A DNA stretch of 64,000 bases, taken from Escherichia coli. Lineage in GTDB: Bacteria; Pseudomonadota; Gammaproteobacteria; Enterobacterales; Enterobacteriaceae. Below, one piece after another: positions 32,151 through 36,866 of the stretch; position 1 is the first letter of the stretch, and every line of letters begins with the position of its first letter. The DNA is taken from the NCBI RefSeq assembly GCF_048403405.1, contig NZ_CP183129.1; one strand, given 5' to 3'. Both the position numbers and the translations under genes were made by a program. The notes below the pieces were generated by a model, which was not told the DNA's origin, did no database searches, and worked only from the letters and a program-made list of their open reading frames with translations.

Positions 32151-34127
32151 ATGTCTGACGACATGTCTATGGGTTTGCCTTCGTCAGCGGGCGAACACGG
32201 TGTACTACGCTCCATGCAGGAGGTTGCAATGAGCTCCCAGGAAGCCAGCAAGATGCTGCGTACTTACAATATTGCCTGGTGGGGCAATAACTACTATGAC
32301 GTTAACGAGCTGGGCCACATTAGCGTGTGCCCGGACCCGGACGTCCCGGAAGCTCGCGTCGATCTCGCGCAGTTAGTGAAAACTCGTGAAGCACAGGGCC
32401 AGCGTCTGCCTGCACTGTTCTGTTTCCCGCAGATCCTGCAGCACCGTTTGCGTTCTATTAACGCCGCGTTCAAACGTGCGCGGGAATCCTACGGCTATAA
32501 CGGCGATTACTTCCTCGTTTATCCGATCAAAGTTAACCAGCACCGCCGCGTGATTGAGTCCCTGATTCATTCGGGCGAACCGCTGGGCCTGGAAGCCGGT
32601 TCCAAAGCGGAGTTGATGGCGGTGCTGGCACATGCTGGCATGACCCGTAGCGTCATCGTCTGCAACGGTTATAAGGACCGCGAATATATCCGTCTGGCAT
32701 TAATTGGCGAGAAGATGGGCCACAAGGTCTATCTGGTCATTGAGAAGATGTCAGAAATTGCCATTGTGCTGGATGAAGCAGAACGTCTGAATGTCGTTCC
32801 TCGTCTGGGCGTGCGTGCACGTCTGGCTTCGCAGGGCTCCGGTAAATGGCAGTCCTCCGGCGGGGAAAAATCGAAGTTCGGCCTGGCGGCGACTCAGGTA
32901 CTGCAACTGGTTGAAACCCTGCGTGAAGCCGGGCGTCTCGACAGCCTGCAACTGCTGCACTTCCACCTCGGTTCGCAGATGGCGAATATTCGCGATATCG
33001 CGACAGGCGTTCGTGAATCCGCGCGTTTCTATGTTGAGCTGCACAAGCTGGGCGTCAATATTCAGTGCTTCGACGTCGGCGGCGGTCTGGGCGTGGACTA
33101 TGAAGGCACCCGTTCGCAGTCCGACTGTTCGGTGAACTACGGCCTCAATGAATACGCTAACAACATCATCTGGGCGATTGGTGATGCGTGTGAAGAAAAT
33201 GGTCTGCCACATCCGACAGTAATCACCGAGTCGGGTCGCGCGGTGACTGCGCATCACACCGTGCTGGTGTCAAATATCATCGGCGTGGAACGTAACGAAT
33301 ACACGGTGCCGACCGCACCTGCAGAAGACGCACCGCGCGCCCTGCAAAGCATGTGGGAAACCTGGCAGGAGATGCACGAACCGGGAACTCGTCGTTCTCT
33401 GCGTGAATGGTTACACGACAGCCAGATGGATCTGCACGATATTCATATCGGCTACTCTTCCGGCACCTTTAGCCTGCAAGAACGTGCATGGGCAGAACAA
33501 CTCTATCTGAGCATGTGCCATGAAGTGCAGAAGCAACTGGATCCGCAAAACCGTGCGCATCGTCCGATTATCGATGAATTGCAGGAACGTATGGCTGACA
33601 AAATGTACGTAAACTTCTCGCTGTTCCAGTCGATGCCGGATGCGTGGGGGATCGACCAGTTGTTCCCGGTTCTGCCGCTGGAAGGGTTGGATCAAGTGCC
33701 GGAACGTCGCGCTGTGCTGCTGGATATTACCTGTGACTCTGACGGTGCTATTGATCACTATATTGATGGTGATGGTATTGCCACGACAATGCCAATGCCG
33801 GAGTACGATCCAGAGAATCCGCCGATGCTCGGTTTCTTTATGGTCGGCGCATATCAGGAGATCCTCGGCAATATGCACAACCTGTTCGGTGATACCGAAG
33901 CGGTTGACGTGTTCGTGTTCCCTGACGGTAGCGTAGAAGTAGAACTGTCTGACGAAGGCGATACCGTGGCGGACATGCTGCAATATGTACAGCTCGATCC
34001 GAAAACGCTGTTAACCCAGTTCCGCGATCAAGTGAAGAAAACCGATCTTGATGCTGAACTGCAACAACAGTTCCTTGAAGAGTTCGAGGCAGGTTTGTAC
34101 GGTTATACCTATCTTGAAGATGAATAA
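32151..34127 (+). CDS. speA: Biosynthetic arginine decarboxylase
   Basis: 658-aa product starting [12 protein letters not shown]; recognised as SpeA. Confidence 0.96.
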
Positions 34128-34272
34128 TTAAGATTATTCCGCTGGCGGGTCAATTTATTTACGTAAATCGGCCCGCTTTCTTTTTATATATTCTTAAAAA
34201 TAATTTAGCTGCTTTTCTTATTAAATAATCCCCCTACAATCGCTGCATTAATTAAATACAGAGGGAACGGTT

Positions 34273-35004
34273 ATGAAAAAAGGGAAAGTACGTAGCGCGT
34301 TGATAGCATTAGCCGTGCTGCTGGCCGGTTGTTCCAGTAATGCGCAGTATAATAGCAGTGCATCAGGCAATGTCGGCACCGCCTGGGGTGGGGATGTACA
34401 CTCATCGGTTCAGGGCGTATCTGCTGAGCGAGCCTGGCGCGATCCGGCAGAGATGATCGTTATTAGTTATTCGACTAATGTTCCTTCCGGCTATGACCGC
34501 GTTTATAGCATTCGTATTAACGAACTGGAATATGCTATTCGCGATGGTAATTTTAATTCTCTACCTATTACGCGTGTTTATGATTCATCCAATAATGAAC
34601 CACGCTATATTGTCCATGCCAGAGTCGGAATGAATTATCAATTATATGTCCGTAATTACAGTCGTAACACCAACTACGAGATCGTTGCTACGGTTGATGG
34701 CCTGGATGTGCTGAACGGCAAGCAAGGTTCGCTGAATAACAACGGCTATATTGTGAATGCCGGAGATTCGTTAGCGATTAAAGGATTCCGCAAAGATAAA
34801 CATACCGAAGCGGCTTTTCAGTTCGCCAACGTTGCTGATTCCTACGCAGCCAATTCGGCGCAAGGCGATGTGCGTAATACCGGGGTAATCGGCTTTGCCG
34901 CCTTTGAATTACAAGGCCCGGCGCAAAACGCGATGCCACCGTGCTCTGGACAAGCCTTTCCGGCAGATAACAATGGCTATGCACCGCCACCGTGCCGGAA
35001 ATAG
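34273..35004 (+). CDS. Hypothetical lipoprotein (243 aa), AT-rich, between speA and speB
   Basis: ATG at 34273 with GAGGGAA upstream; signal peptide plus lipobox LLAGC; strong terminator downstream; no family recognised. Confidence 0.7.
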   Translation: MKKGKVRSALIALAVLLAGCSSNAQYNSSASGNVGTAWGGDVHSSVQGVSAERAWRDPAEMIVISYSTNVPSGYDRVYSIRINELEYAIRDGNFNSLPITRVYDSSNNEPRYIVHARVGMNYQLYVRNYSRNTNYEIVATVDGLDVLNGKQGSLNNNGYIVNAGDSLAIKGFRKDKHTEAAFQFANVADSYAANSAQGDVRNTGVIGFAAFELQGPAQNAMPPCSGQAFPADNNGYAPPPCRK

Positions 35005-35071
35005 CAACCTCGCTTGATGCCTCGTCCATTTAAGGCGATAATTAGCGCAAACTTGTGTTTCGCAAATCCAA

Positions 35072-35111
35072 CCCTTCCTCGTCGGGCCTAACGACGCGGA
35101 AGGGTTTTTTT
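35072..35111 (+). terminator. Intrinsic terminator upstream of speB
   Basis: Hairpin cccttcctcgtcg-ggcctaa-cgacgcggaaggg (12/13 bp) followed by TTTTTTT. Confidence 0.8.
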
Positions 35112-35139
35112 ATATCGACTTTGTAATAGGAGTCCATCC

Positions 35140-36060
35140 ATGAGCACCTTAGGTCATCAATACGATAACTCACTGGTTTCCAACGCCTTTGGTTTTTTAC
35201 GCCTGCCGATGAACTTCCAGCCATATGACAGCGATGCTGACTGGGTGATTACTGGCGTGCCGTTCGATATGGCCACTTCTGGTCGTGCGGGGGGACGCCA
35301 CGGTCCGGCAGCGATCCGTCAGGTTTCGACGAATCTGGCCTGGGAACACAATCGCTTCCCGTGGAATTTCGACATGCGTGAGCGCCTGAATGTCGTGGAC
35401 TGCGGCGATCTGGTATATGCCTTCGGCGATGCCCGTGAGATGAGCGAGAAGCTGCAGGCGCACGCCGAGAAGCTGCTGGCTGCTGGTAAGCGTATGCTCT
35501 CCTTCGGTGGTGACCACTTTGTTACGCTGCCGCTGCTGCGTGCTCATGCGAAGCATTTCGGCAAAATGGCGCTGGTACACTTTGACGCCCACACCGACAC
35601 CTATGCGAACGGTTGTGAATTTGACCACGGCACCATGTTCTATACCGCGCCGAAAGAAGGTCTGATCGACCCGAATCATTCCGTGCAGATTGGTATTCGT
35701 ACTGAGTTCGATAAAGACAACGGCTTTACCGTGCTGGACGCCTGCCAGGTGAACGATCGCAGCGTGGATGACGTTATCGCCCAAGTGAAACAGATTGTGG
35801 GTGATATGCCGGTTTACCTGACCTTTGATATCGACTGCCTGGATCCTGCTTTCGCGCCGGGAACCGGTACGCCAGTAATTGGCGGCCTGACCTCCGATCG
35901 CGCTATTAAACTGGTACGCGGCCTGAAAGATCTCAACATTGTTGGGATGGACGTAGTGGAAGTGGCTCCGGCATACGATCAGTCGGAAATCACCGCTCTG
36001 GCTGCGGCGACGCTGGCGCTGGAGATGCTGTATATCCAGGCGGCGAAAAAGGGCGAGTAA
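35140..36060 (+). CDS. speB: Agmatinase
   Basis: 306-aa ORF recognised as SpeB. Confidence 0.96.
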
Positions 36061-36100
36061 GCGCCGGATAAGATGCGTTATGCGTCAAATCCGGCGTAAT
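36061..36100. repeat. REP-like palindrome between convergent speB and loiP
   Basis: cgccggat ... atccggcg inverted arms. Confidence 0.55.
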
Positions 36101-36107
36101 AAAATGC

Positions 36108-36866
36108 TTACTTAACTCCATCCGCGCTCATACGATCGCGAATATGCTGGGCGCGTTCGGCGGATGCTGGATGGTCGTCAAACATTGAGCTTTGACGGCC
36201 TTCTTCCAGCTTCGCCAGTTTTTCAAAGCTGGTGGCAAGACCTGCCGGGTTGATGCCGCGTTGGCGCAGAAGATCGTAAGAATAATCATCGGCTTCTGCT
36301 TCCTGGCGCTGGGAGAATTGCGAATTAACTAATTTCTCGCCCAGATCACCGAGTTGTGATTGAGATAAACTGCCGACAATCCCGCCCGCAGAGGCCGCAG
36401 CTACTCGCACGGCATTTGTACCAAGTGCCACCTGCATCCCTTTTTTCACATGGCCTAACGCCACGTGCCCCATCTCGTGACCGATCACCGCTTCGACTTC
36501 GTTATCCGTCATCATATCCATCAGCCCGCTATAGACGCGGATACAACCGTTAGCCATTGCAAAGGCGTTCACATCCTTCGCCATATACACTTTGTAATTC
36601 ACCGGCTGACCGTTGATATTGTTGCCTAGCGCATTGGCAATAGTTGTCAGACGTTTAGCGTATTCGCTATTGGCTGGCGCAATCGTCGCCTTGCTGTCCA
36701 TCTCCTGACATGCCTGATCGCTCAGGGTTTTCACCTGCGCATCACTCAAACTGTAAGCCTGAAAAGCTTCCGCTCCTGATGAGAGCAGTCCGTTGGAGTC
36801 CATATTCTGGCAACCGGTCAGTACCGTTGCCACGCTCATTGCTACCAATAAGGCGCGAATTTTCAT
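36108..36866 (-). CDS. loiP: Outer-membrane lipoprotein metalloprotease LoiP (YggG)
   Basis: 252-aa product starting MKIRALLVAMSVATVLTGC with HEMGH zinc motif; track ORF is over-extended by 73 codons. Confidence 0.92.
   Translation of the reverse strand: MKIRALLVAMSVATVLTGCQNMDSNGLLSSGAEAFQAYSLSDAQVKTLSDQACQEMDSKATIAPANSEYAKRLTTIANALGNNINGQPVNYKVYMAKDVNAFAMANGCIRVYSGLMDMMTDNEVEAVIGHEMGHVALGHVKKGMQVALGTNAVRVAAASAGGIVGSLSQSQLGDLGEKLVNSQFSQRQEAEADDYSYDLLRQRGINPAGLATSFEKLAKLEEGRQSSMFDDHPASAERAQHIRDRMSADGVK

Follow-up and report, generated by a model that had tools for sequence, protein, structure and literature searches.

A lipoprotein gene between speA and speB

We analyzed a 64,000-nt stretch of Escherichia coli DNA (contig NZ_CP183129.1 of assembly GCF_048403405.1), here called the window, in which the genes for biosynthetic arginine decarboxylase, speA, and agmatinase, speB, are separated by an interval of 1012 bp (34128-35139) containing a single long open reading frame (ORF). 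The original prediction, made from the sequence alone, had put this gap at about 1 kb compared to about 135 bp in K-12, and had read the ORF as a 243-aa lipoprotein with the lipobox LLAGC. The measured distances were 1012 and 137 bp, and the ORF was confirmed (Table 1). In the K-12 strain AB1157 no gene is annotated in the 137 bp between the speA stop and the speB start, so the expected absence of the gene from the K-12 locus was borne out, and in strain HS the distance is likewise 137 bp and gene-free by annotation.

The N-terminus of the product, MKKGKVRSALIALAVLLAGC followed by SSN, has a positively charged n-region and a hydrophobic core that leads into the lipobox L-A-G-C (LLAGC). The gene is equivalent to ECs3813 (ECs_3813; NP_311840.1) in O157:H7 Sakai and to WP_000758915.1 in IAI1. 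It has been annotated since the first O157 genomes, and across thousands of genomes RefSeq labels it as "hypothetical protein", "lipoprotein" or "membrane protein". Literature searches on the speA-speB lipoprotein gene found nothing written about it.

When the gene was compared to other Escherichia alleles by the Nei-Gojobori method, the ratio of nonsynonymous to synonymous divergence (dN/dS) was 0.07-0.21, which is the mark of a functional gene. Across Salmonella, Klebsiella and Kluyvera, where the synonymous divergence (dS) could be estimated, the ratio ranged from 0.055 (Salmonella) to 0.13. The dS of the gene was 0.06 within E. coli and approximately 0.32-0.35 against E. whittamii and two Escherichia sp. 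isolates, and it was saturated against other genera. The gene evolves much faster than its neighbours, with a nonsynonymous divergence (dN) from Salmonella of 0.18 compared to 0.012 for speA. The possibility that the ORF was a frame artefact with no homologues, which the original prediction had left standing, was refuted by these ratios and by the 290 homologues found at 90% clustering. Together, these results showed that the interval encodes a genuine, selectively maintained lipoprotein gene of 243 aa.

The gene was also found to be AT-richer than its neighbours, as had been predicted. The lipoprotein ORF has a GC content of 48.6% and a GC content at third codon positions (GC3) of 45.9%, compared to 54.2% and 60.8% for speA and 55.7% and 63.8% for speB, and the 145-bp spacer upstream of the ORF has a GC content of 33%. 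Yet the ORF lies near the average of the whole window, which is 50.5%. The orthologues of Salmonella, Citrobacter freundii and Klebsiella have a GC content of 48.6-50.6% compared to 55.5-58.7% in their own speA. Since the low GC content is common to the orthologues, it carries no signature of recent transfer. Neither mobility genes nor flanking direct repeats were found at the window locus.

Table 1. Coordinates of the genes and the observed or predicted signals at the speA-speB locus, numbered from the first nucleotide of the window.
Feature	Position	Strand	Basis
speA, biosynthetic arginine decarboxylase, 658 aa	32151..34127	+	ORF; annotation under genome matches
Variable segment, 935 bp	34128..35062	.	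Pairwise alignments; unique 60-bp sequence in its place in K-12-type genomes
Conserved motif TAAGATTATTCCGC, immediately after the speA stop codon	34129..34142	+	Cross-genus alignment
Predicted intrinsic terminator of speA, 14-pair hairpin followed by TTTCTTTTT	34144..34185	+	Fold, z = -3.4
Candidate -10 element of the lipoprotein gene promoter, TACAAT	34235..34240	+	Conserved as TACAAT / TACTAT / TACACT across genera
Shine-Dalgarno sequence of the lipoprotein gene, GAGGG	34261-34265	+	
Lipoprotein gene, 243 aa	34273..35004	+	ORF, RefSeq annotation, homologues, purifying selection, AlphaFold2 model
Promoter-like site upstream of speB: TTGATG, 17 nt, GATAAT	35014..35042	+	Consensus scan
Terminator-like hairpin in the speB leader, 14 predicted pairs and T7	35070..35111	+	Fold; inverted repeat
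Shine-Dalgarno sequence of speB, AGGAG	35128-35132	+	
speB, agmatinase, 306 aa	35140..36060	+	ORF; annotation under genome matches

An ancestral neighbour of speA in Enterobacteriaceae

A megablast of positions 34000-35250 against 5426 complete E. coli genomes found the full interval with the lipoprotein gene in 3542 genomes (approximately 65%) with at least 97% identity, and the short interval of the K-12 type in 1867 genomes (approximately 34%). The few remaining genomes include rearranged loci, for example in strain HT-948. In strain 23CRST038, the 5' part of the gene has been lost in a rearrangement associated with IS1, and the remainder is joined to the actS region. There is also a C-terminally truncated variant of the lipoprotein, 174 aa long, that represents 448 member sequences, and some entries for Shigella dysenteriae in AlphaFold DB are truncated as well. 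The gene is present in the reference strains Sakai, IAI1 and JJ1886, which belong to phylogroups E, B1 and B2, respectively, and absent from K-12 and HS, both of phylogroup A.

An orthologue with 57-75% identity lies immediately 3' of speA in Salmonella, Citrobacter, Klebsiella, Kluyvera, Phytobacter, Kosakonia, Entomohabitans and Intestinirhabdus. The gene is also found directly 3' of speA in E. albertii, E. whittamii and two Escherichia sp. isolates, and E. fergusonii has a near-identical protein that falls into the same 90%-identity cluster. Altogether, the gene adjoins speA in at least 10 enterobacterial genera, and clustering of the neighbouring ORFs placed speA, speB, metK and loiP beside it in 9 genus groups. 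In Citrobacter and Klebsiella the order is speA, lipoprotein gene, speB. In Salmonella enterica, speA and the lipoprotein gene are followed not by speB but by genes for a GntR-family regulator, a mannitol dehydrogenase, a zinc-dependent alcohol dehydrogenase and an Ldh_2 protein, which indicates that a sugar-alcohol island was inserted between the lipoprotein gene and speB.

According to the original prediction, the extra DNA interrupts the speA-speB arrangement. The comparison reversed this claim, because a gene that is found next to speA across genera and across Escherichia species makes the short arrangement in K-12 the derived one. These results showed that a lipoprotein gene next to speA is the ancestral state in Enterobacteriaceae and that K-12-like strains have lost this gene.

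The short allele is a replacement by a unique 60-bp segment

In pairwise alignments, K-12 has 60 bp where the window has the variable segment of 935 bp. The breakpoints are sharply defined, with flanks that differ between K-12 and O157 by 1.6% on the speA side and 2.8% on the speB side. The K-12 60-mer was found at this locus only, as a single copy per genome in 1867 genomes (at least 95% identity), and no source for it was found elsewhere within E. coli genomes. It is approximately 60% similar to the final 58 bp of the variable segment, with a local alignment score of 12, and it matches the spacer upstream of the lipoprotein gene about equally weakly; the scores against the two spacers of the long allele were 11.5 and 12, compared to 7.7 +/- 1.5 for shuffled sequences. 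The 60-mer retains a -35-like TTGAAT and a -10-like GATAAT, 17 nt apart, whose distance from the downstream hairpin equals that in the long allele. A clean deletion in K-12 was considered and rejected, because the 60-mer aligns weakly and there are no direct repeats that fit the K-12 junction. Instead, the comparison showed that the short allele is the outcome of one replacement event in which 935 bp were swapped for a unique 60-bp segment. The K-12 locus thus has the same speA, speB and 77 bp upstream of speB, including a hairpin, as the window. It differs in that it is without the predicted speA terminator, the lipoprotein gene and the putative promoter of this gene, and in that a diverged version of the speB promoter region makes up the 60 bp that follow the speA stop.

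The locus is flanked by metK on the minus strand upstream of speA, and by loiP on the minus strand and tktA on the plus strand downstream of speB. The spacer between speB and loiP (36061-36107) is 47 bp long in the window compared to 203 bp in K-12, which has approximately 156 bp more, and in IAI1 and strain 23CRST038 the gene downstream of speB is dagR instead of loiP. The downstream side of speB is therefore also polymorphic. Only 66 of the 5425 matching genomes were at least 99% identical to the window over 34000-35250, with strain TUM14771 as the best match (100%), and nearly all others were 95-99% identical. The window speA is 96.4% identical to that of K-12 over its last 1628 bp, a divergence of 3.6%. 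With so few close matches and this divergence in speA, the window comes from a lineage of E. coli that is less commonly sequenced.

Predicted signals separate speA, the lipoprotein gene and speB

The conserved motif that immediately follows the speA stop codon resembles an RcsAB box. This resemblance is a lead only, by which the lipoprotein gene may belong to the Rcs envelope-stress regulon. The motif is followed by the predicted intrinsic terminator of speA, whose hairpin is preserved across genera despite sequence changes on both arms of the stem, as would be expected of a working terminator. The terminator is located inside the variable segment, and the alignment shows K-12 without it. The candidate -10 element of the lipoprotein gene is positioned approximately 35 nt 5' of the ATG. 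The consensus promoter scan called no full promoter for the lipoprotein gene, as a good -35 element was missing.

The promoter-like architecture upstream of speB (TTGAAG/TTGAAT, 17 nt, GATAAT) was also found in K-12 and in most of the genera sampled. Approximately 27 nt past this site begins the terminator-like hairpin of the speB leader, the T-run of which ends 28 nt 5' of the speB ATG. The 103-nt hairpin region folds at -35.9 kcal/mol with z = -5.25 compared to shuffled sequences, and the hairpin occurs once in the window. A search of 31300-36200 on both strands gave no Rfam match at E<=1. Including its loop, GGGCCTAA, the hairpin is nearly invariant in Escherichia, Citrobacter, Klebsiella, Kluyvera, Intestinirhabdus, Entomohabitans and an "Enterobacter sp." isolate, and the stem shows compensatory change at 2 positions across 7 genera. 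Phytobacter and Kosakonia have a different hairpin in the speB leader. The original prediction had placed a strong terminator after the lipoprotein gene. A hairpin with a T7 run is indeed present there, but it is identical in K-12 and therefore not part of the extra DNA. The 77 bp directly upstream of speB are common to both alleles, so that speB keeps its proximal signals with or without the lipoprotein gene. The leader hairpin looks like an undescribed attenuator or terminator that transcripts of speB would have to read through.

Taken together, the sequence signals argue for separate units and not for membership of the lipoprotein gene in a speA-speB operon. The ancestral layout would comprise three units. 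Transcription of speA would stop at its own terminator, the lipoprotein gene would start from its own AT-rich promoter region with the candidate -10 element, and speB would use the conserved promoter-like site with read-through of the leader hairpin. The lipoprotein gene would leave the proximal control of speB undisturbed, and its loss in K-12 would have removed the speA terminator and set speA against the speB leader. Any transcript reading through from speA would have to cross two terminators and the 732-bp gene in the ancestral layout but only the leader hairpin in K-12. A study of speB from 1990 reportedly found that transcripts of the gene in K-12 arise from a promoter of its own as well as from speA. 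It is plausible that the co-transcription of speB with speA differs between the two alleles.

The product is a predicted outer-membrane lipoprotein with an all-beta domain

The protein is divided into a signal peptide (residues 1-19), a predicted lipidated cysteine (Cys20), a tether (approximately 21-32), an all-beta domain (approximately 33-214) and a conserved C-terminal tail, AFPAD..GYAPPPCRK. It has the charged n-region, the hydrophobic h-region and the lipobox [LVI][ASTVI][GAS]C of a bacterial lipoprotein. Cys20 does not vary among 40 homologues, and in 55 more distant ones it is conserved to at least 90%. The protein would be exported by Sec, lipidated on Cys20 and cut by signal peptidase II. 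The mature N-terminus is predicted to be C-S-S-N, with no Asp at +2, and the enterobacterial orthologues have S or A at this position. By the Lol-avoidance rule, a Ser at +2 and the absence of the avoidance Asp predict sorting to the outer membrane. The signal peptide, the L-A-G-C lipobox, the invariant Cys and the absence of Asp at +2 are shared with the outer-membrane lipoproteins processed by Lgt/LspA/Lnt and Lol.

The prediction that the protein belongs to no recognisable family held, as there was no Pfam match to the protein even at E<=10, nor to any of 40 relatives at E<=0.001. The NCBIfam matches were limited to the signal-peptide region and below threshold, the best reaching 14.5 bits compared to a cut-off of 375. 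PADLOC gave no match, PHROGs gave only weak matches, nearly all of them on the signal-peptide region, and a sequence profile search of the PDB gave no usable match. The family itself is large. There are 290 homologues in a 90%-identity collection, and a profile built from 40 homologues and searched against 1.84 billion representative proteins matched 4196 clusters at 50% identity with E<=1e-3, 3252 of them with E<=1e-10. The members are found in Gamma-, Beta- and Alphaproteobacteria as well as in Chondromyces and Roseibacillus, all of them diderms. Among the best 150 profile matches there were no domain fusions; all were single-domain proteins of 160-385 aa, and the longer members carry a low-complexity linker rich in Pro and Ala, up to approximately 150 residues long, between the lipobox and the domain. 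Psychrobacter immobilis has two tandem lipoprotein paralogues of 251 and 279 aa.

AlphaFold2, run with an alignment, gave a model with a predicted local distance difference test (pLDDT) score of 82.9 and a predicted template modelling (pTM) score of 0.80. In the model, residues 6-30 are disordered, residues 33-214 form approximately 13 beta strands, and confidence is lower in the C-terminal tail. Among members that are 30-43% identical, the invariant residues are T36, G39, R53, Y66, Y122, N128, D142, G143, D145, V146, G149, G158, G171, R173, A180, F182, F184, Y191 and G204, while W38, E136, N202, F229-P230 and P240 are near-invariant. The family motifs are LGTxWGE, YE[IV]VATVDGLDV, GFR, AAFRF, SYAA, NxGVIGxAxF and FPxx..YAxPP.

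A Foldseek search against AFDB50 returned, among the best 50 matches listed, only family members annotated as "lipoprotein" or "uncharacterized". In a sample of AlphaFold DB, the best fold matches outside the family were uncharacterised and mostly fungal proteins, several of them DUF7918, with Z scores of 4.7-10.6. These fungal DUF7918 models differ from the lipoprotein in sequence, the identity being 9-20%, and assignment of the lipoprotein to DUF7918 was rejected since the Pfam scan found no family at E<=10. Because DUF7918 is itself uncharacterised and eukaryotic, the match is uninformative on function, and literature searches found no paper mentioning DUF7918. Solved beta-sandwiches of the MATH/TRAF-like, MSP and ZP types share the general topology over approximately 90-105 residues. 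As judged from the model, the all-beta domain has no convincing relative among solved structures. The disordered tether before a folded domain is reminiscent of tethered lipoproteins such as LpoB, and the length of the tether varies widely in the family. The window protein differs from LpoB and the named lipoprotein families in that it has no sequence or fold relationship to them.

Discussion

The results lead us to favour, with moderate confidence, an explanation in which an ancestral gene was lost in K-12-like strains, the ancestral locus is laid out in three units, and the gene product is an envelope-binding lipoprotein of the outer membrane. The domain of approximately 180 residues would be a beta-sandwich presented at the outer membrane on a flexible tether of approximately 12 residues, and the invariant residues, including T36, R53, Y66, Y122, N128, D142, D145, R173 and Y191, suggest a site that binds a common component of the diderm envelope. 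For the gene itself, we favour a non-essential envelope-binding or accessory role that would be independent of polyamine synthesis, and no fold match pointed to a particular ligand. Several observations weigh against this explanation. The promoters and terminators are predictions from consensus or folding, and the putative promoter of the lipoprotein gene has no recognisable -35 element. It would be awkward for a strong terminator-like hairpin to separate speB from its putative promoter, and the promoter may have been wrongly assigned. The K-12 allele is no clean deletion, so that a "single loss" simplifies the event. Finally, the many invariant polar residues would equally fit an enzyme, and the strict adjacency to speA in Enterobacteriaceae could reflect a functional link.

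The context of the gene outside Enterobacteriaceae bears on the last point. The neighbours of the homologue are metJ and an OmpX-like gene in Providencia, thrS and recO in Gilliamella, and mltG in Neisseria, and in Variovorax and other Comamonadaceae, including Comamonas, the homologue lies between hisD and hisC. In the last case it is wedged between two biosynthetic genes of the same pathway, as it is in the enterobacteria. When the neighbours in 80 loci were clustered, no conserved neighbour was found outside Enterobacteriaceae. One neighbour cluster that had seemed widespread was discarded, as it consisted of an antisense ORF that overlaps the gene in genomes of high GC content. The strictly conserved position between speA and speB on the same strand across Enterobacteriaceae would be accounted for if the lipoprotein served the polyamine pathway within a speA-lipoprotein-speB operon, either in the handling of agmatine or putrescine at the envelope or in the localisation of SpeA, which old biochemical reports are said to have placed in the cell envelope. 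However, there is a conserved predicted terminator between speA and the gene and a promoter-like site between the gene and speB, an unrelated island parts the gene from speB in Salmonella, a third of the E. coli genomes are without the gene yet have intact speA and speB, and the copies that are truncated by IS1 in rare strains or appear as truncated entries in Shigella dysenteriae also speak against such a role. The unrelated neighbourhoods outside Enterobacteriaceae, the gene's own terminator and promoter signals and its loss in a third of E. coli thus argue against a part in polyamine synthesis, which we regard as unlikely. That the domain acts as an enzyme, or inhibits an enzyme of the envelope or the host, and is not a passive binding module, has a small but real chance of being correct. 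Among the small beta-rich lipoproteins of enterobacteria there are several enzyme inhibitors, and approximately 19 residues, among them D142, D145, R53, R173, N128 and three Tyr, remain invariant at 30-43% identity; on the other hand, neither the sequence nor the fold resembles known enzyme or inhibitor families, and the neighbourhood contains no conserved partner gene.

The history of the gene could also be read differently, and the original prediction implied one such reading, that of an insertion. The GC3 of 45.9% compared to 61-64% in the neighbours, the 33%-GC spacer in front of the ORF and the absence from K-12 could all be taken as signs of a recent, horizontally acquired islet in non-K-12 lineages, and the annotation of O157 reportedly counted the gene among the DNA that is strain-specific by comparison with K-12. 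But the same site next to speA is occupied by orthologues in at least 10 genera as well as in the other Escherichia species that were sampled, the AT-richness compared to speA is just as high in the orthologues, mobility genes and flanking direct repeats were not found, and the divergence of the gene, measured as dS, tracks that of the species, which makes an islet extremely improbable. The locus was accordingly rejected as a genomic islet on its occupancy, its lack of mobility genes or repeats and a composition that the orthologues share. Loss from 34% of the complete E. coli genomes and the truncated variants (by IS1 in 23CRST038, in the 174-aa form with 448 sequences and in the Shigella entries) might instead suggest that the ORF is a remnant, decaying or without function, that E. 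coli is in the course of losing. This is very improbable, and for the allele in the window it is contradicted by the retention of full length in 3542 genomes at 97% identity or above, a dN/dS well below 1, and a lipobox and motifs that are intact across phyla.

A further-reaching reading joins all of these points, and we hold it only tentatively, as it is doubtful that every part of it is correct. The "speAB operon" of K-12 would be derived and atypical, with separate units in most E. coli and in Enterobacteriaceae at large, speB would be attenuated by its leader hairpin, and the replacement in phylogroup A would have taken away the speA terminator and rewired the coupling of speA and speB. 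The lipoprotein would in turn found a diderm envelope family of more than 4000 clusters with a fold that is not represented in the PDB and an Asp/Arg/Tyr site for a specific ligand or activity.

The lipoprotein is an uncharacterised protein of a familiar kind, the accessory envelope lipoproteins, and it suggests no new principle. As an ordinary accessory envelope gene it is of modest interest, while a lipoprotein family that is widespread in diderms and has neither a curated model nor a solved relative is a reasonable target for structural and envelope studies. The K-12 layout, on which the work on speA and speB regulation is based, is a minority, derived allele, and two thirds of E. coli as well as the neighbouring genera have an additional predicted transcription unit and a predicted terminator between speA and speB. 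Polyamine regulation as described in K-12 needs to be checked in the ancestral layout before it is transferred to pathogenic or commensal E. coli, Salmonella or Klebsiella.

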